Part shown: piece by piece, positions 203 through 57,271 of the stretch | Layout: every line of letters starts with the position of its first letter | Numbering within the stretch: position 1 is the stretch's first letter | NCBI GenBank assembly: GCA_966211835.1 | Contig: CBIHNV010000002.1 | Coordinates: forward strand, 110,751 to 174,750 | DNA length: 64,000 bases | Direction: 5' to 3' | From: an uncultured Sphingobium sp. | Lineage (GTDB): Bacteria; Pseudomonadota; Alphaproteobacteria; Sphingomonadales; Sphingomonadaceae | Notes under the pieces: model-generated | What the model saw: only the letters and a program-made list of their open reading frames with translations | Database searches by the model: none | What the model was told of the DNA's origin: nothing | Made by a program: the position numbers and the translations under genes

Positions 203-313
203 GGCTTTCCTGCTGCTGGCGATGGCCAGAATAGACTTTAATTTTGCGGAGCAGGCGCTAATCCCGCCGCTCCCGGCGCGGTCCATGCGCCATTGACGGC
301 GGATCGGCAAGAC

Positions 314-832
314 GTGTCTCATATTGTGCCCCTCAACATCGTGGCGGAAGAGGCGATCGAGCAGTTGCTTGATGCTGCTTTCGGGCCCGACCGGCACGGC
401 CGCACCGCCTATCTGATCCGGCAAGGCATGGCCTGGGCGCCCGAACTGTCGTTCGCTATGATGGACGAGCATGGCAAACTGGCCGGGACACTGCAAAGCT
501 GGCCCGTCGCGCTCACCCATGACAACGGAACGCAAACACCGCTTATCATGGTGGGTCCTGTCGCTGTGTCACCGGCCCTTCAGCGCACCGGTCATGGCCG
601 CGCGCTGATGGACGCGGTCGTGAACGCCGCCCGCGCTCATCATAGCGAGCCGCTGATCATGATCGGCGATCCGGAATATTATAGCCGCTTCTGGGGCTTT
701 TCCGCCGCAGCCACCGGCGGCTGGAGCTGCCCCGGCCCCTATGAAGCGCGCCGCCTGCTCGCCCTCTCGGTCGATGGCTCGGCAATCGGAGGGGCGGGCA
801 TGCTGGGGCCGCGAATCACCGCAGAGGTGTGA
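314..832 (+). CDS. GNAT family N-acetyltransferase
   Basis: Acetyl-CoA motif A (VAVSPALQRTGHGRALM) and IGDPEYYSRFWGF. GTG start at 314 chosen; track ORF begins at 293. Confidence 0.8.
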   Translation: MSHIVPLNIVAEEAIEQLLDAAFGPDRHGRTAYLIRQGMAWAPELSFAMMDEHGKLAGTLQSWPVALTHDNGTQTPLIMVGPVAVSPALQRTGHGRALMDAVVNAARAHHSEPLIMIGDPEYYSRFWGFSAAATGGWSCPGPYEARRLLALSVDGSAIGGAGMLGPRITAEV

Positions 833-875
833 TTTCCCTTTTGCCTTCCCCGCCGCGCGATCCTATCTCGACGGC

Positions 876-1442
876 ATGCCGATGGACCCGCTACCCGATC
901 TTGCAAATCTCTCGCTCGCCGACATAGCCCGTCTGGCGCAGGACAAGCGGCTGCCGCCTGTCGGCAAGTGGAACCCCGACCATTGTGGCGACAGCGAGAT
1001 GCGCATCGCCCGCGATGGCACCTGGTTCCATCAAGGCTCGCCGATCGGCCGGGAAGCGATGGTGCGGCTCTTCTCCACGATCCTGCGGCGTGAGAGAGAC
1101 GGTTCCTATGTACTTGTAACTCCACTTGAAAAGCTCTCGATAGAAGTTGAAGACGCTCCCTTCCTCGCGGTGGAGCTGAAAAGCGAGGGCGAAGGCCGCA
1201 GCCGCGCCCTCGCCTTCCGCCTTAACACCGGCGACCTGATAGCCGCAGGGCCCGGAAACCCCCTCGTCATCCGGGAAACGCCCGACGGCCCGCATCCTTA
1301 TCTCCATGTTCGCGGCGGCCTTGAGGCATTGGTCAATCGCAGCGTCTATTATGAACTGATGAACCTCGCGCTTGATGAAGCGAGCGACCCGGTCGGCCTG
1401 TGGAGCAACGGCGCCTTCTACCCGCTGGATGGCTCCGCATGA
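876..1442 (+). CDS. DUF1285 domain protein
   Basis: RLPPVGKWNPDHCGDSEMRIARDGTWFHQGSPIGR...LVTPLEKLSIEVEDAPF is typical of DUF1285. Confidence 0.75.
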   Translation: MPMDPLPDLANLSLADIARLAQDKRLPPVGKWNPDHCGDSEMRIARDGTWFHQGSPIGREAMVRLFSTILRRERDGSYVLVTPLEKLSIEVEDAPFLAVELKSEGEGRSRALAFRLNTGDLIAAGPGNPLVIRETPDGPHPYLHVRGGLEALVNRSVYYELMNLALDEASDPVGLWSNGAFYPLDGSA

Positions 1443-2050
1443 GCCTGGCTGACCGGCTGCGATCCGCGCTGGCTGAGGGACATGCCCGCGAAGTCGGGCT
1501 GACGACATCGGACACGCGCGATCCACGCATCGATGGCGAACTGGTGCTTGCGCCTGCCGCCGTGCTCGTCGCCATCACCGACCGGCCGGAACCCGGCCTT
1601 ATCCTTACCGAGCGGGCGGCTTCCCTGCGCAAGCATGCGGGCCAGATAGCGTTCCCCGGCGGGCGCGTTGATCAGGAAGACGCAGACGAGATTGCCGGGG
1701 CGTTGCGTGAGGCGAAGGAGGAAATAGCCCTCCCGCCCGATATGGTGGATATCATCGGGATAACCGATCGCTACCATACATTTACCGGCTTCGACATCGT
1801 GCCCGTCCTGGGCGTCATTCCGCCCAACCTGCCGCTCACGCCGCAAGCCGACGAGGTGGCGGACTGGTTCGAGCTGCCCCTGTCTTTCGCCCTGGACCCC
1901 GCCAACCGCATCAAACATGCTGTGAACTTCCAAGGTGTTGAGCGGCACTATTATGAAATCATGTGGAACGACCGCCGCATCTGGGGCATCACCGCCGCCA
2001 TCCTTGCCAATCTCTCGCGGAGGCTCGATCTTGACCGCCTTGTTGCCTGA
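1439..2050 (+). CDS. NUDIX hydrolase, CoA pyrophosphatase type
   Basis: LRKHAGQIAFPGG (NuCoA motif) plus Nudix box ALREAKEEIAL. ATGA overlap with the upstream gene. Confidence 0.88.
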   Translation: MSLADRLRSALAEGHAREVGLTTSDTRDPRIDGELVLAPAAVLVAITDRPEPGLILTERAASLRKHAGQIAFPGGRVDQEDADEIAGALREAKEEIALPPDMVDIIGITDRYHTFTGFDIVPVLGVIPPNLPLTPQADEVADWFELPLSFALDPANRIKHAVNFQGVERHYYEIMWNDRRIWGITAAILANLSRRLDLDRLVA

Positions 2051-3242
2051 TGCCGAATGGCGTCATCGGCCCGGCCTAGATGGCCTGCTCACTGCGCTGG
2101 GGGCGGAACAGGGCCTTGCCCGCTATGTCGGCGGAGCGGTACGCGATGGCCTGCTTGGGCTCCCCGTCAACGACCTCGACATCGCGACTGCACTGGAGCC
2201 GCAACAGGTGGTCGATCGCCTCAAGGCCGCCGGGATCAAGGCGGTGCCCACCGGCATCGACCATGGCACCGTCACCGCCGTAATTGCGGGGTGGCCGGTC
2301 GAGATCACGACCCTGCGCCGCGATGTCAGCACCGATGGCCGCCGCGCGACCATTGCCTATACTACCGAGTGGCAAGAGGATGCAGCCCGGCGTGATTTCA
2401 CCATCAACGCCCTTTATGCCGACCCCCAAACCCACGAGATCACCGACTTCTTCGGCGGCGTCGATGATCTGCGCGCGGGCCGCGTCCGCTTCATCGGCAG
2501 CGCCGTCGAGCGAATTGCGGAGGATCATCTCCGCATTCTGCGCTACTTCCGCTTCCTCGCACGCTTCGGCCGCGACACAGTGGATGAGGAAGCCTATGCC
2601 GCCTGCCGCGCCGCCGCCAACAGCCTGATGGCGCTATCTCGCGAGCGTATCGCCGACGAATTGCTGAAGCTGCTCGCCCTTCCCGATCCGCTCACCTCGC
2701 TTCGACTGATGGTCGATGGCGGTATCTTCCTTCCGGTCCTGCCGGAAATCGGATCTGACGGGCTTGTGCGGGTAGAGCAGCTTGTCCAGCGCGAGACTGA
2801 AGCCGCTATTTCGCCCGCCGCCCTGCGCCGTCTGGCCGCGCTTCTTCCTCCAGACGCCCGCACCGCCGATGCTGTCGGCGCGCGTCTCAAACTGTCCAAC
2901 AAAGCTAGAAAGCGCCTGGGCATCGCGCTTGAACCGATGTCTGAGTCAAGCTCGCCCAGGGCGCTTGCCTTCCAGGTCGGCGTGGAAGGCGCCATCGACC
3001 GGATCCTGCTCGACCGCTCCTCACCAATCGACGGCATCGCCGAGCTTGAAGGCTGGGTCCCGCCGCAACTCCCTATCGGCGGAGGCGCGCTCATCACGCG
3101 CGGCCTGCGCCCCGGGCCTGACGTCGCCAAAGCCTTGGGCGAAGTGCAGAGCGCTTGGGTGGATGAAGGGTTCCCGGAAGAAGCCCGGGTCAATCAGATC
3201 GCTGATCAGATCGTCTCGAAATTCCAGCGCGCGCGCCAATAA
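2031..3242 (+). CDS. cca: CCA tRNA nucleotidyltransferase
   Basis: YVGGAVRD..DLDIAT, RRDFTINAL and EDHLRILRYFRF motifs. TTG start inferred. Confidence 0.85.
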   Translation: MTALLPDAEWRHRPGLDGLLTALGAEQGLARYVGGAVRDGLLGLPVNDLDIATALEPQQVVDRLKAAGIKAVPTGIDHGTVTAVIAGWPVEITTLRRDVSTDGRRATIAYTTEWQEDAARRDFTINALYADPQTHEITDFFGGVDDLRAGRVRFIGSAVERIAEDHLRILRYFRFLARFGRDTVDEEAYAACRAAANSLMALSRERIADELLKLLALPDPLTSLRLMVDGGIFLPVLPEIGSDGLVRVEQLVQRETEAAISPAALRRLAALLPPDARTADAVGARLKLSNKARKRLGIALEPMSESSSPRALAFQVGVEGAIDRILLDRSSPIDGIAELEGWVPPQLPIGGGALITRGLRPGPDVAKALGEVQSAWVDEGFPEEARVNQIADQIVSKFQRARQ

Positions 3243-4957
3243 TCGAACGCCTCATTTTCCGGCATGGGGCGCGCGAAGTAGAAGCCCTGCCCATGGCCGC
3301 AGCCCATGGATTGCAGCGCGTGGGCCAGTTCCTGCGTCTCTATGCCTTCCGCCGTGACGTGCAGGTTCAGCGATTCGGCCAGCGACAGGATCGTGCGAAC
3401 GATCGCCTGCTTGTCCTTGTCCTCAAGCATGGTGGACACAAAGCTGCGATCGATCTTCAAAATGTCGATCGGCAGGCTGTGCAGGCTCGCCAGATTGGAG
3501 TAGCCGGTGCCGAAATCGTCCATGGCGATCGGCATCTGCAGGTCTTTCAGCGCCACCAGCAGCTTCCGCGCCTTGTCCGGATCGGCGATGATCGCGCTTT
3601 CCGTCAATTCAACGGTCAGGCGCTTGCCCGACACCCCCGAATAACGCAGCGCCTCCTCGAACATCGACGCCACATCGTCGCGCGCCATCTGGATGGGCGA
3701 CAGGTTCACGTTGACGCCTACCGGCAAAGCCTGCCCGAACTTCGCGTCCCAGCGGCTGAGCGCCTGCGCCGCCTCATAGGCCGCCCAGCGCCCAAGCGGC
3801 GTGATGAGGCCGCTTTCCTCGGCCACCGCGATGAACTCGCATGGCGACACATTGCCAAGGTCCGGGTCGTTCCAGCGGGCGAGCGCCTCGAAACCGGTGA
3901 TTTCGCCCGTCTGCAACTGGATCAGAGGCTGATAGGCCAGCGTCAGGTCACCCTGCGCCAACGCAGTCCGCAGGCGGCTTTCGATGGAAAAGCGCCGCTG
4001 CGCTTCCTTGAGCACCCCGTTGCGGTAGATTTCCACCTTTCCGCTGCGCTTGGCGATCTTCACCGCCGCCTGCGCCTTGCGCACCACATCGTCGGGGTCG
4101 TCATCAAGGCTGGTCGACAGCGCACAGCCGATCGCGCAATCCACGCGGATTTGCAGATCGCTCAGCCGGATGGGCGAACTCAGCGCGTCCTTCACCCTCT
4201 GAACGATATGAAGACAGTCAGACAAACCGTTGTTAAGGCGTGCAAATATCGCAAAGTCGTTTCCGCCGATCCGGGCCAGCACGTCGCCTTGCCGCAAATT
4301 CGACTTCAACCGTTTTGCGACCGTGATCAGCAGTTCGTCGCCAGCCATCGGTCCCAGCGATTCGTTGACACGGCTGAACCTGCTGAGATCGATCGCGATG
4401 ATGCCGAATTGCGAATTGCCCGGCCATGGCGTGTTGCGCAGCCGGTCTTCAATCTCTTCGCCAAAGCCCGTGCGGTTCGGCAACGCTGTCAGCCCGTCCG
4501 ACAATAATTCCCGCCGCAGGTTCCTCTCGGTGACCCGGTCGCTGGTGCGGTCCATCGCCGTGAAAAGGATGAGGTTCACGCCCTCTTCGTCCGACGGCAG
4601 CAGGCCAGCCGTGCAGGAAAAATATTCCGGACCCAGCGGACCGTCTCGCCGCAATTCAAAGGAAGAGGAGACATTGTCGGTCAGTGCGACCTCCAAAATC
4701 CGCTCTCGCCAATCCTTGCAATAAGGCAGCTCGGCCCCCAGCTCGCTGCTTTCCAGGAAGCTGCTGTAGAATGTCTTGTTGACAGCAACGATCATCAAGT
4801 CGCTGTCTTTAAAGCATAACATGGCGGCGGCGTGCGGCACGGCCTCCAGCCAATGCTCCATCTCGGCCCGGCAGCGCAGATGCGTGCGCTCGAACCTCGC
4901 AAGGAGGCCGTCGTCCAGCCTTTGACTTGGCCGAATACGCACAGGGACCGATTTCAT
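3206..4957 (-). CDS. GGDEF-EAL protein, probable c-di-GMP phosphodiesterase
   Basis: DGLTALPNR, degenerate GGNDF active site, intact EAL and DDFGTGYS. Start at MKSVPV is uncertain. Confidence 0.88.
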   Translation of the reverse strand: MKSVPVRIRPSQRLDDGLLARFERTHLRCRAEMEHWLEAVPHAAAMLCFKDSDLMIVAVNKTFYSSFLESSELGAELPYCKDWRERILEVALTDNVSSSFELRRDGPLGPEYFSCTAGLLPSDEEGVNLILFTAMDRTSDRVTERNLRRELLSDGLTALPNRTGFGEEIEDRLRNTPWPGNSQFGIIAIDLSRFSRVNESLGPMAGDELLITVAKRLKSNLRQGDVLARIGGNDFAIFARLNNGLSDCLHIVQRVKDALSSPIRLSDLQIRVDCAIGCALSTSLDDDPDDVVRKAQAAVKIAKRSGKVEIYRNGVLKEAQRRFSIESRLRTALAQGDLTLAYQPLIQLQTGEITGFEALARWNDPDLGNVSPCEFIAVAEESGLITPLGRWAAYEAAQALSRWDAKFGQALPVGVNVNLSPIQMARDDVASMFEEALRYSGVSGKRLTVELTESAIIADPDKARKLLVALKDLQMPIAMDDFGTGYSNLASLHSLPIDILKIDRSFVSTMLEDKDKQAIVRTILSLAESLNLHVTAEGIETQELAHALQSMGCGHGQGFYFARPMPENEAFDYWRARWNFETI

Positions 4958-12447: not shown

Positions 12448-12461
12448 ATAGTCCCACCGCT

Positions 12462-12539
12462 CCGTTCGCACTGAGCTTGTCGAAGTGCCCTTCTTCCTTG
12501 AAGTACAGGGCAAGCCTTCGACAGGCTCAGGCCGAACGG
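12462..12539. repeat. REP-like inverted doublet (CCGTTC-GNNC-TGAGCYTGTCGAA-GNNC family) between convergent genes
   Basis: Left arm ccgttcgcactgagcttgtcgaagtgc; inverted right arm agccttcgacaggctcaggccgaacgg. Confidence 0.85.
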
Positions 12540-46815: not shown

Positions 46816-46910
46816 CCGTTCGCCCTGAGCCTGTCGAAGGGCTTCTCTTCTTCAAGATGAGGGTTTCGACTGCTGCCTGCAGCAGTCGCTCAGCACAGGC
46901 TCCGCCCGGA
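46816..46910. repeat. REP-like doublet of the CCGTTC family; right arm interrupted by a 24-nt palindromic insert
   Basis: ccgttcgccctgagcctgtcgaagggc ... ttcgac[tgctgcctgcagcagtcgctcagc]acaggctc. Confidence 0.75.
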
Positions 46911-48123: not shown

Positions 48124-48873
48124 TCAGCGGATCAGCCCCAACGCCCACCATCCCGGCAGCGCTGCAACCGCCTGACAAGTGCCCAGCGGAACCCGTGTCG
48201 CCGCCGTCATTCTGCGCCCGCCAGCCATGCCCACTAGAACAACCAACAACCCCAGGCTCGCCGCCATCAGCAATATGAAGGGCAGCGCTTGCCAGCCGAA
48301 CCAGCCCCCCAGCGCGCCCATCAGCTTGGCATCCCCCAGGCCCAATCCCTCACGTCCACGCACCGCGCGATAACTGAGCGCGATGATCAGCAGCGCGGCA
48401 TATCCGCCCGCCGCTCCAATCAGCCGGTCCGCCAGCATCGCATCCGTCACCCAAAGACCAAGCGTCAGCCCAAAAAAGGCAAGCGGCAATGTCAGCGCAT
48501 CGGGCAACCAGAAATGCCGCCAATCAAGCAGCGCCAGCGTCAGCAGCAGCCATCCGAGCAGCGCCCATCCCGCACCTGCCAGCCCCGGCACCAGCCCACA
48601 TGCAAGCGCGCCGATCACGGCACATGCCACTTCCACACGCCCATGCAGCGGATCGATCTTCGCGCCGCAGGTCCGGCACCGTCCTTTCAGCAGAAGCGCA
48701 CTGACAACCGGCACAAGATCGATCGCGCCCAAAACCCGCCCGCAGCCATCGCAAGCCGACCGTCCACGCGCAACACCCCGCCCCTCAGGCCAACGCAGCA
48801 CCAGCGTCCCCAAAAAGCTGCCCGCAATCGCGCCCGCGACCGCGCCCAGCACCGCCCATAGCGGATCAATCAC
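48124..48873 (-). CDS. gspO: T2SS prepilin peptidase
   Basis: GSFLGT, CxxC..CxxC, DWRHFWLPD, GLGDAKL. Confidence 0.88.
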   Translation of the reverse strand: MIDPLWAVLGAVAGAIAGSFLGTLVLRWPEGRGVARGRSACDGCGRVLGAIDLVPVVSALLLKGRCRTCGAKIDPLHGRVEVACAVIGALACGLVPGLAGAGWALLGWLLLTLALLDWRHFWLPDALTLPLAFFGLTLGLWVTDAMLADRLIGAAGGYAALLIIALSYRAVRGREGLGLGDAKLMGALGGWFGWQALPFILLMAASLGLLVVLVGMAGGRRMTAATRVPLGTCQAVAALPGWWALGLIR

Positions 48874-49592
48874 AGCGTCCCTTCGACCTTCAGCTCGCGC
48901 GCGCCGCCTGTCCCTGCGAAGCCCGCCTTCGCCAGCGCTTCGCCTAGCGCCGCATCCGCCGTCTCCACCCGCATCTCCGCCACATAGCGCCCCGACCGCC
49001 ATATGCGCAGGGTCACTTTCTCCAGTCCGGATTGGCTCACCAGCGGCAGCAGCAGCGCCTCGCCGTCGCAACTCGCGACGCCCGACAGCCCCTGCGTCAG
49101 GTTAAGGCCGGGGAACTGCCCCGCCATCTGCGCCCGCACCCGCCCCTCGGCATGACCGCAGCGATCACCGGAGAAGTATGCCGATACATCCTCCATCGCC
49201 AAACTCGCGACCGGCAGCGGCGCAAAGCTTCGGCCAAGCGGCACCGTGCCTGTCACATCATCGATGCCGACACGTCCAAAACCGACCGTCAGCGCCCCGC
49301 TCAGGTCGTCGGCTGCGCCCTGCCGCCGCCATATGTCGAACCGCACCCGGCCCATCAGCAACGACACCGGCGACAAGGCGGCCTTCACCGACCCGACCGG
49401 CATCGTCCCCAGCATCAACTGGTCGATCCGCCCGCTCCACAGCGTCCCCCGCACTTCCCGCGCAGCCACGCCCAACCGTTCCAGCCCCGAAAGCCCAAGC
49501 GCGATCCGCATCGGCATGAACAGGATCAGCCCGAATATAAACAACAGGAGGACCGCAATCCGCGTCCGCCGCGACCAGCCGAGCCGCCTCAT
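48870..49592 (-). CDS. gspN: Type II secretion protein N
   Basis: N-terminal TM, GTLWSG motif; position after gspM. Confidence 0.8.
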   Translation of the reverse strand: MRRLGWSRRTRIAVLLLFIFGLILFMPMRIALGLSGLERLGVAAREVRGTLWSGRIDQLMLGTMPVGSVKAALSPVSLLMGRVRFDIWRRQGAADDLSGALTVGFGRVGIDDVTGTVPLGRSFAPLPVASLAMEDVSAYFSGDRCGHAEGRVRAQMAGQFPGLNLTQGLSGVASCDGEALLLPLVSQSGLEKVTLRIWRSGRYVAEMRVETADAALGEALAKAGFAGTGGARELKVEGTL

Positions 49593-51192: not shown

Positions 51193-52178
51193 GCACCGGT
51201 CCCCAAGCTGCGGCCGATCAACCGCGCCGGGCTCTGCCGCGCATCGATCAGCGCTCGCTCCACCACTTGCGTACCCCCAACGTCCACCGTCACGTCCACC
51301 CCGAAAAATCCTGTGGTCAGCTTGACCTGATTGGCCGCTTCCTCAAGCGGATTTATGCCTTGGGCGGCGAGCGGCGCCCAAAATTGCACTGTGCTGCCAT
51401 AGCCTTCGACTGGCCGCTGCACCAAATATTGCCGCGCCTGGGCGACGCTCACCTGCCCTTGCAGCAACATCGCGAACAGCACCGCCTGCCCCGGCAGCAG
51501 CGTATTGACGTTGATCGGTGACAAATCCGATGTCGGCAGCGCGCACACCCACGGCCGCGCCAGATCGTAGATGGCTGGCGTCACGCCATGCACGGCGCGC
51601 AGCTCGCTTGCGTCGATCATGAAGCGGTTGGCCGTGCGATAGGGCCACGCCGCCTGCGCATAAACCTCATCCTCCGCCCCGCCGGGCTGCGGCACGCTAT
51701 CGCTGTCGATCCAGTCGGCAAGCGATGCCGCCGCCACCTGCGCCTGCCGGGCGTCGACGCCCAACGCCTGCAACAATGCCTGGAATTGCGCAACGCCGAG
51801 CGGCCGGACCTTCAGGTTCGACTCATTCTCGCCAGCCACCACGCTGTTGAGATTGAAGCAATTGCCCGCATCACTAACCCGCGCACTCGCCACCCCGCCC
51901 GGCACAGCGACAGGCTGCGGTGTGCCCATCCAATTCCCGGCCAGCGTCGTCTTGCCCGGACTGGCTGCGACCAGATCACCGATCCGCAGCCGCGCCATCT
52001 CTACCCCAGCATCGGCAAAGGCGCGCGCCTGATCCACCGCCCCACCATTGCCCGTCATCCGCGTCGCCAGCGCCAGCCGCTCCAGCGCCGTCGATGCTAC
52101 CACCGCCATCACCGCAACCAGCAGCAACACCGTCAGCAGCGCCGCACCGCGCTCACCCTTTTTGCCGGGATCAGGCAC
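51189..52178 (-). CDS. gspK: Minor pseudopilin K
   Basis: ERG|AALLTVLL, DAGNCFNLNS, DWIDSD, ININT-like INVNT. Confidence 0.88.
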   Translation of the reverse strand: MPDPGKKGERGAALLTVLLLVAVMAVVASTALERLALATRMTGNGGAVDQARAFADAGVEMARLRIGDLVAASPGKTTLAGNWMGTPQPVAVPGGVASARVSDAGNCFNLNSVVAGENESNLKVRPLGVAQFQALLQALGVDARQAQVAAASLADWIDSDSVPQPGGAEDEVYAQAAWPYRTANRFMIDASELRAVHGVTPAIYDLARPWVCALPTSDLSPINVNTLLPGQAVLFAMLLQGQVSVAQARQYLVQRPVEGYGSTVQFWAPLAAQGINPLEEAANQVKLTTGFFGVDVTVDVGGTQVVERALIDARQSPARLIGRSLGTGA

Positions 52179-52839
52179 CAGCCATCTCCCCTTCCAGCTT
52201 TTCGGCAGGCCCCGGCCCGACCAGAAAGCGCAAGGTAACCGGCGCCTCACCCGTGCGCGTCACCGTCAGCTCGACGGCACGCGGCATCAGGTCCGGCTGC
52301 GTCGGTATCCACTCATCGCGCCACTCTCCGCGCGCATCGCGAAAGCGCAGCGCGACATCATCCACATGGTCCAGCAGCGTCGCAGGCTCCTCCCCCCCCG
52401 CACCATCGACCTGGCGGTAGGTCCGCCGCTCCAGCCGCCCCTGCCGCACCCAATATTCGACCTTTTGCAACGACGGGCGCGGCAAGTCGCCCAGATTGTC
52501 CCAGCCACCGCGCACGAACTGCATCACCGGCACCGCCTCGCCCTCGCGATGCGACCAGAATGCAGGGGCCAGCGTACCCGCTTCCGTCCGACTGATCCGC
52601 GGCACCGCCTGCCCAAGATCAGCGGCCAGCGCCCCGCCTGCCCGCTGCACGGCGGCCATGTCGTCCAGCCGCTCCTTCACCTGCGCCTGCGCCGAAACGC
52701 TGTTCCCCAGCAACAACACTCCCGCCGCCGCCAGCATGGCAAAGATCATCAACGCCACCAGCAACTCGATAAGCGTAAAGCCCGCCTGCCCGCGCTCCTC
52801 CTGATGCGAGCCAGCTCCATCGGATGCGCGGCTCATCAC
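52171..52839 (-). CDS. gspJ: Minor pseudopilin J
   Basis: G|FTLIELLVALMIFA; VRGGWDN; LQKVEYWV. Confidence 0.88.
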   Translation of the reverse strand: MMSRASDGAGSHQEERGQAGFTLIELLVALMIFAMLAAAGVLLLGNSVSAQAQVKERLDDMAAVQRAGGALAADLGQAVPRISRTEAGTLAPAFWSHREGEAVPVMQFVRGGWDNLGDLPRPSLQKVEYWVRQGRLERRTYRQVDGAGGEEPATLLDHVDDVALRFRDARGEWRDEWIPTQPDLMPRAVELTVTRTGEAPVTLRFLVGPGPAEKLEGEMAGA

Positions 52840-53303
52840 GGCACCACCCGAACAAAACTTAGCACGACCGGCGACGACCCCGCCTGCCCATTCACCGTCA
52901 GATCAACCTGCAACAACCGCTTGTCGCTCGTAGCCTTGACCGCCCGGCTCCAATGCCAGCGCCGCCCGCCATTCTCGACATCGCCCTCTTCGCTGCCCAG
53001 CGAAGGCGGCGCGGGATCGGTCTGCACTTCGACCATCAGGTTACGCGCGACAATCTGTCCCAGCGCCTTGCTGTCGAGATCCGCCGCCGTCCGCAACGTC
53101 ACCCCCTGCAACCGCACCAACGCCAGCGCCGCCAGACTGAACACCGCCAGCGCCACCAGCATCTCCAACAGCGTGAAGCCTTGCTCACCCGTTGGACCCC
53201 GCCTCTCGCCCGTTACAGACCACCTCTCATCCGTTCGGGCTGAGCCTGTCGAAGCCCTTCCCTTTCTTCCAGCAAAGCTACCCAGGATGCCAAACCTACC
53301 CAC
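52836..53303 (-). CDS. gspI: Minor pseudopilin I with a 42-aa repeat-containing leader
   Basis: G|FTLLEMLVALAVF. The only in-frame ATG/GTG/TTG start is the GTG overlapping the gspH stop. Confidence 0.85.
   Translation of the reverse strand: MGRFGILGSFAGRKGRASTGSARTDERWSVTGERRGPTGEQGFTLLEMLVALAVFSLAALALVRLQGVTLRTAADLDSKALGQIVARNLMVEVQTDPAPPSLGSEEGDVENGGRRWHWSRAVKATSDKRLLQVDLTVNGQAGSSPVVLSFVRVVP
53231..53257. repeat. Single REP arm inside the gspI leader
   Basis: ccgttcgggctgagcctgtcgaagccc. Confidence 0.85.
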
Positions 53304-53748
53304 CGACCATGACCTTCCCAGCCATATCGACGGTCACAGAAACCCGCTCCGCCTCCCGCGCCAAAGTCACCGTCATGGCGTCAGTCGGCAGCCCGGTCCC
53401 ATCAAACCCAATCTGTTCCCGCCCATCCTTGCCCACCAGCGCCCGCGTCCCGGCCTTCCAATTCGCCGTCACGAACAGCTTTTCCTCCACCGGCACCCAT
53501 TGCCTGCCATCGCGGCGCTGAAATCCATAGCCCGACGCCGAAACCCACACCCCCATCGGACGCGCCGTCACGACCGCTTCGTCGCGCGCGGCAGCAACGC
53601 GCGCGGCAAAGCGATCGGCATCCTCGACAACCCGGCCGCGCGGATCAGGCATGGCCAGCACCACCGCGGCCGAGATGAAGCCGATGATCGTCAACACAAC
53701 CATCAGCTCAATCAAGGTGAAGCCATTAGCGATTGGCGAACGAACCAC
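53296..53748 (-). CDS. gspH: Minor pseudopilin H
   Basis: G|FTLIELMVVLTIIG. Start is GTG 53748, or ATG 53886 which would include the repeat. Confidence 0.82.
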   Translation of the reverse strand: MVRSPIANGFTLIELMVVLTIIGFISAAVVLAMPDPRGRVVEDADRFAARVAAARDEAVVTARPMGVWVSASGYGFQRRDGRQWVPVEEKLFVTANWKAGTRALVGKDGREQIGFDGTGLPTDAMTVTLAREAERVSVTVDMAGKVMVGG

Positions 53749-53755
53749 TCCCTCT

Positions 53756-53782
53756 CCGTTCGGGCCAAGCCCGTCGAAGTCC
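53756..53782. repeat. Degenerate REP arm at the gspG-gspH junction
   Basis: ccgttcgggccaagcccgtcgaagtcc. Confidence 0.7.
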
Positions 53783-53857
53783 TCAGTCGAGCAAAGCGAG
53801 GCACTCCGCCCTTCTCGGACTTCAACCCCGCTTCCTTCAAACGGATGGCGAGCCAGA

Positions 53858-54391
53858 TCAAAGCACGCTGGAATAAATATCCGCATTCTCGCTCTCGCCG
53901 CCCGGCTGGCCGTCCGCGCCCAGCGAACTGATATCAAACGCGCCCTTCCGCCCTGGCACTACATAATTATACGCCCGGCCCCACGGGTCCTGCGGCAGCT
54001 TCTTGATATATCCACCCCTGCGATAGCGCTGCGGCTGCGCCAGCGAGGCAGGCGGATTGATCAGCGCCTGCAATCCATCGGTCTGCGCCGGGTAGCTCAG
54101 ATTATCGAGCCGATACTGCTCCAGCGCCTGCTCGATCGTAGCGATATCCGCCTTCGCCTTCTCCACCCGCGCCGTGTCGGTCGCCGGAATAACGTTGATC
54201 GCCACGATCGTCGCCAGCAGCCCGATGATGACGATAACCACCATCAACTCGACCAGCGTGAAGCCGTGTTCGGCGGAACGCCTTGAGAAGGTGAAGCAAT
54301 TCTCGCCCGCCTCTCGACCTCCGTTCGCACTGAGCTTGTCGAAGTGCCCTTCTTCTTCTTGGAAAAGGCGCGCGACTTTCAAACTCCACAT
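53858..54391 (-). CDS. gspG: Major pseudopilin G with a 43-aa repeat-containing leader
   Basis: G|FTLVELMVVIVIIGLLA, LPQDPWG, SSLGADGQPGG; GAGGAG RBS 5 nt before the ATG at 54391. Confidence 0.92.
   Translation of the reverse strand: MWSLKVARLFQEEEGHFDKLSANGGREAGENCFTFSRRSAEHGFTLVELMVVIVIIGLLATIVAINVIPATDTARVEKAKADIATIEQALEQYRLDNLSYPAQTDGLQALINPPASLAQPQRYRRGGYIKKLPQDPWGRAYNYVVPGRKGAFDISSLGADGQPGGESENADIYSSVL
54321..54347. repeat. Single REP arm inside the gspG leader
   Basis: 54319-54355 is identical over 37 nt to 12460-12496. Confidence 0.88.
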
Positions 54392-54400
54392 AATCACTCC

Positions 54401-57143: not shown

Positions 57144-57271
57144 TTCCACCCCCGTTCGCCCTGAGCTTGTCGACCCGATAAGGCGGCGTAGCCAACGGCC
57201 TTACTGACTTGAAGAGAAGAGAAGGGCTTCGACAAGCTCAGCCCGAACGGAGATGGCAACGCGTCTGTCAC
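57140..57271 (-). CDS. Putative 43-aa repeat-encoded bridging ORF between gspD and gspE
   Basis: MTDALPSPFGLSLSKPFSSLQVSKAVGYAALSGRQAQGERGWK; GTGA overlaps at both ends. Confidence 0.4.
   Translation of the reverse strand: MTDALPSPFGLSLSKPFSSLQVSKAVGYAALSGRQAQGERGWK
57152..57250. repeat. REP-like doublet of the CCGTTC family with a nested insert
   Basis: ccgttcgccctgagcttgtcga[insert]...gggcttcgacaagctcagcccgaacgg. Confidence 0.85.

Follow-up and report, generated by a model that had tools for sequence, protein, structure and literature searches.

Small repeats that lie in frame within genes are known from the Rickettsia palindromic elements (RPEs) and from other small mobile sequences (PMC2229807; Ogata 2000). 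Repetitive extragenic palindromes (REPs) are typically found within a few tens of nucleotides (nt) past the stop codon of the upstream gene (PMC3733652), and inverted REP doublets (REP doublets forming hairpins, REPINs) are mobilised by REP-associated tyrosine transposases (RAYTs) (PMC3116915). Di Nocera et al. (2013) compiled a catalogue of intragenic and N-terminal REPs, including the CGTC-tagged REPs of sphingomonads, and deemed most of the N-terminal ones to be extragenic (PMC3733652). The class III leader of prepilins remains in the cytoplasm, and cleavage takes place on the cytoplasmic face, with the last glycine of the leader, Gly(-1), as the only critical residue; published prepilin leaders range from 6 to 26 amino acids (aa), and those of type IVb and Flp pilins from 15 to 30 aa (PMC4471445). 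Here we describe the operon for a type II secretion system (T2SS) of an uncultured Sphingobium sp., located on a 64,000-nt stretch of contig CBIHNV010000002.1 (assembly GCA_966211835.1; hereafter the window, in whose numbering all positions are given), in which copies of a dispersed palindromic repeat occupy the 5' parts of the pseudopilin genes gspG, gspH and gspI. We consider it likely that these repeats are translated within cleavable leader peptides, and that in-frame insertions are neutral there since the leader is cut off.

The repeat has the consensus CCGTTCG-NNC-TGAGCYTGTCGAAG. A search with the pattern CCGTTCGSRCTGAGCYTGTCGAAG, allowing up to 3 mismatches, gave 8 matches in the 64-kb window and none in 100 shuffles. 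Three of these lie in the 5' parts of gsp genes, all on the + strand (53231 in gspI, 53756 in gspH and 54321 in gspG), as an earlier reading of the letters without database searches (the sequence-only reading) had noticed. The remaining copies form two inverted doublets (12462 with 12516, and 57152 with 57227), and one copy lies at 46816. The gspG arm (54319-54355) is identical over 37 nt to the intergenic copy at 12460-12496. Arms consist of a conserved 13-nt centre and a short flanking stem that covaries among copies (GCAC with GTGC, GGGC with GCCC, GCCC with GGGC). In four metagenome assemblies, depth over the gspG and gspI arms was ~307-3243 versus ~11-25 over the flanks, i.e. ~10-150 times higher depending on the run; the repeat family is therefore high-copy. 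Single arms, which the sequence-only reading had described in all three genes, were indeed found in gspG and gspI; the gspH copy turned out to be a complete palindrome, the left arm of which (~53817-53844) has decayed. The fold of this palindrome reached -60.5 kcal/mol (z -2.4), and single arms folded no better than shuffled sequence.

Overall, the family exhibited the characters of REPs and REPINs, namely a short palindromic unit, high copy number, dispersal and inverted doublets, including the decayed doublet in gspH. The GTAG or CGTC end tag was absent from the consensus (CTCCGTTCG..CTGAGCTTGTCGAAG..), and CGTC was present solely in the decayed gspH copy. A Rfam scan of 52-58 kb, with E up to 1, returned a single match at chance level (AaHKsRNA41, E 0.8, on the gspD-gspE doublet), which places the repeat outside the curated RNA families.

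The gspG ATG (54391) lies 9 nt past the gspF stop codon and 5 nt past a GGAG, and opens a leader of 43 codons, MWSLKVARLFQEEEGHFDKLSANGGREAGENCFTFSRRSAEHG/FTLVEL (the slash marks the cleavage site here and below). GspG with this start was called as a 177-aa protein in two independent assemblies. Its leader contains FDKLSANG, and the 42-aa leader of GspI contains RASTGSART, which the same repeat encodes in a different frame. Neither gene has an in-frame ATG, GTG or TTG in the stretch from the repeat to the G/F site. The GspJ and GspK leaders are free of repeats and measure 20 and 11 aa, respectively. On leader lengths, repeat-encoded peptides and start codons the sequence-only reading was borne out, and its statement on start codons could be extended to CTG, ATT, ATC and ATA. 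For gspH there are two options, either the ATG at 53886, 26 nt inside gspG, with a leader of 55 aa, or the GTG at 53748, with a leader of 9 aa. Gene callers disagreed on this protein (196 or 150 aa), and they shortened GspI to 106 aa by placing its start within the mature N-terminal helix.

Two samples, together comprising ~150 related genomes, isolates included, were compared: 80 loci around gspG from species-representative genomes, mostly Sphingomonadales and Caulobacterales; and 80 Sphingobium loci around gspL, of which ~77 were used in the junction counts. Starts coupled to the upstream stop codon were observed at fixed offsets, with the gspG ATG at +4 to +14, the gspH ATG at -26 or -23, the gspI GTG at -5, -8 or -11, and the gspJ ATG or GTG at -1 (an ATGA or GTGA overlap). 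By comparison, the spacing between the upstream stop codon and G(-1) took many values. Among the Sphingobium loci, 54 distinct lengths (40-267 nt) were found at the F-G junction, 41 (10-259 nt) at G-H, 36 (13-244 nt) at H-I and 38 (11-290 nt) at I-J, with a single class modulo 3 in 74/77, 76/76 and 77/77 loci for the last three, respectively. The same was observed in the 80 gspG loci, where one class accounted for 70/71 distances at I-J (30 lengths), 69/72 at H-I (30 lengths) and 62/74 at G-H (39 lengths). Control junctions before non-prepilin genes showed only 4 lengths at K-L (66 out of 77 identical), 2 at L-M and 6 at M-N.

The first ATG past the gspF stop codon was in frame with the G/F site in 75 of 76 genomes, at 39 distinct distances, and the gspG frame was free of stop codons in 75/76, compared with 15/76 for one and 10/76 for the other of the two remaining frames. 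Among junctions of at least 60 nt, the frame of the gene was open in 50/51, 37/37 and 49/49 cases, and the other frames in 43-65%. In orthologues without a repeat, leaders were far shorter (13-17 aa in GspG, 13-16 aa in GspH, 7 aa in GspI and 5-11 aa in GspJ), so that repeat-free genomes did not have equally long leaders, and so short a leader leaves the upstream coupled codon as the only possible start. Moreover, 57 of the 176 distinct leaders of at least 30 aa had no in-frame ATG, GTG or TTG after codon 8. We conclude from these comparisons that the coupled starts are probably used and the inserts read, because an untranslated spacer would not keep frame and openness in this way.

It could be argued that the repeats are extragenic, with gspG and gspI starting downstream of them at a non-canonical codon and gspH at the GTG after GGAGAGGGA, the long open reading frames (ORFs) being an artefact of GC-rich DNA. 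REPs at annotated N-termini have usually been judged extragenic (PMC3733652), and the divided calls for gspH, the shortened GspI, the good downstream start of gspH and the openness of the other two frames in part of the long junctions would all be in keeping with this explanation. However, it leaves gspG and gspI without any ATG, GTG, TTG, CTG or ATH at which to start between the repeat and the G/F site, and a frame kept in 74/77 to 77/77 loci over 36-41 lengths is unexpected for an untranslated spacer. Since repeat-free orthologues can, in addition, be started only at the same upstream coupled codons, we regard an extragenic position of the repeats as very improbable.

The inserts found in the leaders were diverse. 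Across genomes, the family of the window was read as FDKLRAN, VRAEPVEA or STSSGRT; a second family, with the core CCCGCCTTCGCGGG, was read as PAFAG or DPRLRGDD; and further inserts included an FSTSLETNG family, among others, and tandem 33-nt copies of RRSAEHGFTxx. Among the Sphingobium loci, the family of the window was present in 18/76 gspG, 7/76 gspI and 2/77 gspH leaders, and 47 of its 55 copies in 630 kb of gsp loci lay within leaders. The 6-8 residues adjoining the glycine were kept, and all insertions were upstream of these, hence of G(-1). The presence, family, length and position of inserts varied between the closest relatives, and no single element was kept at any junction across the genus. 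Leader lengths ranged from 5 to ~98 aa and differed among close relatives. The nearest relative among the genomes found was Sphingobium agri (91% identity in GspL), whose strain MAH-33 has a GspG leader of 43 aa. Comparison of the window with S. agri and another close relative revealed clean in-frame indels of 105 nt and 39 nt, the former being the gspH insert, which is absent from S. agri. Strain variants of the window in metagenomes differed by a clean 3-nt in-frame indel. Long leaders with their own repeated motifs (RAQAASRRA..., LDPRLKAEDD) were also observed in GspG of Brevundimonas and relatives (37-83 aa); long, repeat-bearing pseudopilin leaders are therefore not limited to sphingomonads.

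These patterns would be explained as follows. REP-like repeats would land just past an upstream stop codon, which in the gsp operon is already the leader of the next gene. The stretch from the coupled start to the G/F site would encode the class III leader alone, which would stay in the cytoplasm and be cut off by the prepilin peptidase GspO. An in-frame insertion free of stop codons would be harmless, because GspO discards the leader, and would survive; the ribosome would read through the repeat, the long prepilin would enter the membrane, and GspO would trim it to a normal mature pseudopilin. The expected outcome is leaders of 5 to ~98 aa, with fast turnover between species. That the repeat is translated, that GspO cleaves the leader and that the insertions are neutral is what we infer from the sequences compared here.

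Several observations weigh against this reading. The gspH gene of the window has a plausible start of its own downstream of the repeat; four genomes have a broken gspH frame and require a downstream start; and in one genome gspG can be started solely at a GTG, which gives an 8-aa leader (MRRSAEHG). Read-through is therefore not the sole solution. The two intergenic doublets of the window are 78 and 99 nt long; because both lengths are divisible by 3, mutation itself could account for some of the frame-keeping. The GspK leader would also be removed, yet it is nearly invariant, with the same spacing in 68 out of 80 genomes. The RSAEHGFT unit at the cleavage site is conserved at synonymous sites, unlike what pure neutrality would predict. 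Finally, none of the 148 arm copies sampled from 120 genomes precedes a prepilin site, in a sample too small and with a baseline too low to measure enrichment over ordinary intergenic spacers; all that can be read from this count is that a very small fraction of the repeat family resides in leaders. The evidence is for tolerance of insertions in leaders, and not for preference or attraction. The sequence-only reading had proposed that prepilin leaders act as safe harbours for repeats: this is supported as far as the tolerance of translated repeats is concerned, frame and openness being kept, and the preference is unsupported.

The RSAEHGFT unit is part of a 33-nt unit (RRSAEHGFTxx) that spans the proximal leader and the cleavage site, and occurs in up to 7 tandem copies in the gspG, gspH, gspI and gspJ leaders of many sphingomonads. 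Exact matches to the 23-mer CGTTCCGCCGAACACGGCTTCAC numbered 201, spread over at least 119 Sphingomonadales loci; since every one of them was within a prepilin leader, the unit was rejected as a general dispersed repeat. In loci that had not been chosen via the 23-mer, its codons were close to fixed, and its synonymous sites agreed across genera and paralogues; Arg was encoded by CGT in 83% of cases versus 13% in the background, and Ser by TCC in 96% versus 19%. Variants such as RSAQQGFT were common to several genes of one genome, a sign of concerted evolution. Gene conversion among adjacent paralogues is the simplest idea to explain the conservation of the unit, although it may also have a function at the sequence level. 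It seems doubtful to us that the GspG, GspH, GspI and GspJ leaders form an actively maintained, concertedly evolving cassette, whether with decoy G/F sites or with an RNA or DNA signal governing how fast or in which order GspO processes the pseudopilins, or as a cassette that the CCGTTCG...CGAACGG repeat family targets or has left as its footprint.

Another explanation is that the inserts are not neutral, and that long leaders, mRNA hairpins or pseudo-cleavage sites tune translation, stability or the order of processing, and hence stoichiometry. The restriction of variability to the G, H, I and J leaders, with K spared, is compatible with such a role, as are the strong fold of the full palindrome at the gspH junction, the nucleotide conservation and concerted evolution of the RSAEHGFT unit and the Shine-Dalgarno-like sequences supplied by the repeat tail GAACGGAGG. 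On the other hand, even the closest relatives carry different inserts, and the gspH insert is missing from the S. agri locus; no junction retains a given element genus-wide; and single arms fold like shuffled sequence. We therefore consider a tuning role unlikely, and the suggestion of the sequence-only reading that hairpins had been co-opted to set pseudopilin stoichiometry found no support, since their presence differs among the closest relatives and single arms fold weakly. The 3' end of the repeat in the mRNA sense, GAACGGAG(G), was observed to give Shine-Dalgarno-like sequences at 53749-53760 and 54316-54324. In gspH, the repeat-borne sequence is followed, with a gap of 0 nt, by GGGA and the in-frame GTG.

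The Pfam N_methyl domain was above the cut-off in GspG, GspH, GspI and GspJ (residues 39-63, 54-75, 40-62 and 16-39, respectively), and both the Pfam search and a motif scan located the G/F-T-L-x-E N-methylation motif and hydrophobic helix of T2SS pseudopilins, with the motifs where they would be expected. T2SSG, GspH, T2SSI, T2SSJ and T2SSK domains were found in the gspD-O order, together with a cognate A24 prepilin peptidase (GspO). Only the leaders depart from the published range of 6-26 aa, with 43, 55 (or 9) and 42 aa in GspG, GspH and GspI of the window and as many as 98 aa in relatives. In short-read assemblies, breaks between contigs fall at the repeat arms, which might suggest that the repeats are assembly artefacts, or else that the genes are decaying. 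This is hardly credible, as the same GspG protein was obtained on two independent assemblies with an intact gspD-L neighbourhood, every pseudopilin ORF is intact with complete Pfam domains, and the pattern recurs in ~150 genomes, including isolates. The sequence of the window was also recovered from rhizosphere and plant metagenomes, in runs stored as assembled contigs, which yielded copy number and strain variants but not transcript ends. The features of the locus are listed in Table 1.

Table 1. Features of the gsp operon and copies of the repeat in the window.
Feature	Position	Strand	Details
T2SS operon gspD, E, F, G, H, I, J, K, L, M, N, O		-	Sphingobium-type gene order
gspF stop codon	54401-54403	-	TGA
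Shine-Dalgarno sequence of gspG	54397-54400	-	GGAG, 5 nt 5' of the ATG; sequence reading
gspG leader	54263-54391	-	43 codons; ATG 54389-54391 to G(-1) codon 54263-54265
Repeat arm in gspG leader	54319-54355	+	Core 54321-54344; mRNA complement reads GHFDKLSANGG
gspG proximal leader and cleavage junction	54258-54298	-	Decayed extra unit CFTFS (54284-54298), then 23-mer CGTTCCGCCGAACACGGCTTCAC (54258-54280) = RSAEHG/FT
Mature GspG (major pseudopilin), with stop codon	53858-54262	-	Pfam T2SSG, E 5e-39
gspH leader	53722-53886	-	55 codons; conserved ATG 53884-53886 (within gspG 3' end) to G(-1) codon 53722-53724
Decayed left repeat arm in gspH leader	53817-53844	-	Pairs with right arm into a long hairpin
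Right repeat arm in gspH leader	53756-53779	+	3 mismatches to the pattern
Alternative gspH start	53746-53757	-	GGAGAGGGA 53749-53757 (repeat tail), then GTG 53746-53748; leader 9 aa
gspI leader	53178-53303	-	42 codons; GTG 53301-53303 (overlaps gspH stop 53296-53298) to G(-1) codon 53178-53180
Repeat arm in gspI leader	53231-53254	+	Other frame, RASTGSART
gspJ leader	52780-52839	-	20 aa, without repeat; GTG overlaps gspI stop (GTGA)
gspK leader	52146-52178	-	11 aa, G/A site, without repeat
gspO prepilin peptidase, longest ORF	48124-49071	-	Pfam A24_N_bact and Peptidase_A24
Inverted doublet of the repeat, gspD-gspE spacer	57152-57250	.	
Inverted doublet of the repeat between convergent ORFs	12460-12539	.	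Reference intergenic copy

Other observations were made on the repeat and on genes next to the pseudopilins. In the gspD-gspE doublet (57150-57267), the 3' end CGAACGGGGGTGGAAGTG runs straight into the gspE start; most relatives start gspE at the gspD stop codon. The distance to a conserved GspE residue ranged from 2 to 265 nt, with 59 out of 75 in one class modulo 3, and the N-terminus of GspE may likewise be open to in-frame insertions. The gspD-gspE spacer was considered as a non-coding null for the modulo 3 counts and was rejected, because gspE starts at the gspD stop codon in most genomes; the long spacers were mixed (8 versus 6). In the longest gspO ORF, ~77 residues precede the first Pfam domain and there is an overlap with gspN; the true start is probably downstream. 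The arm CTTCGACAAGCTCAGNNCGAACGG was found with all 22 specified bases identical across Sphingomonadales, Burkholderiales and other Betaproteobacteria, Methylococcales, Dehalococcoidia/Chloroflexota, Dadabacteria, Sulfuricurvum and Moraxella, and such identity across phyla is unusual for a REP. Inverted doublets accounted for 91 of the 148 sampled copies, and in some taxa a stem of 10 bp enclosed the conserved 13-nt loop within a single unit.

Translation of the inserts as part of a discarded leader is a reading well supported by comparative genomics. If it is true, prepilin peptidases must accept leaders several times the textbook length and of essentially arbitrary sequence, and the gsp junctions would represent a natural experiment on leader content. 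It would also provide a route by which selfish repeats persist in tightly coupled operons, namely the coding segment that is discarded. Annotation would be affected as well, since callers shorten GspI, are split on GspH and treat N-terminal REPs as non-coding, and long ORFs appear to be right here. The hypervariable gsp junctions could moreover serve as strain markers.

Our literature search returned nothing relevant on REPs in prepilin leaders, on long T2SS leaders or on the peptides FDKLRAN and LSLSKG, and the list of intragenic REPs of Di Nocera et al. includes no pilin or pseudopilin (PMC3733652). What is new is the site of insertion, a cleavable prepilin leader, and the scale, which covers four adjacent genes and a whole bacterial order, with leaders up to 4 times the published maximum. 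Like the REPs catalogued by Di Nocera et al., which lie near upstream stop codons and frequently reach into annotated N-termini (PMC3733652), the repeats of the gsp operon are found at gene starts; the CCCGCCTTCGCGGG family (...DPRLRGDD) even has the CGTC-stem-loop-stem layout of the CGTC-1 type (PMC3733652). They differ in that the comparative evidence points to translation, and in that the family of the window has neither a GTAG nor a CGTC tag. With REPINs they share short, high-copy hairpin units, present both as inverted doublets and as decayed singlets and located for the most part behind genes. However, in the arm described here a short covarying stem encloses a conserved 13-nt loop, and the 22 specified bases of the arm are common to several phyla, whereas REPINs are lineage-restricted.

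Among pilins, those of the type IVb and Flp classes have a similar hydrophilic, cytoplasmic leader that ends in Gly and is cut by an A24 aspartic peptidase, and theirs is processed despite being longer than the type IVa norm. Their leaders are typical of the family and conserved in length, whereas those of the gsp genes vary from 5 to ~98 aa among close relatives and contain repeat DNA; unlike type IVb and Flp pilins, the mature proteins here are ordinary type IVa-like T2SS pseudopilins. The RPEs resemble the gsp inserts as dispersed palindromic repeats with open frames that are tolerated in frame inside a conserved gene, and no sequence relation between the two was seen. RPE-derived peptides remain in the mature protein, whereas all inserts in the gsp genes are upstream of G(-1), in a leader that would be removed, and several unrelated repeat families, together with tandem duplications, occupy the same sites.

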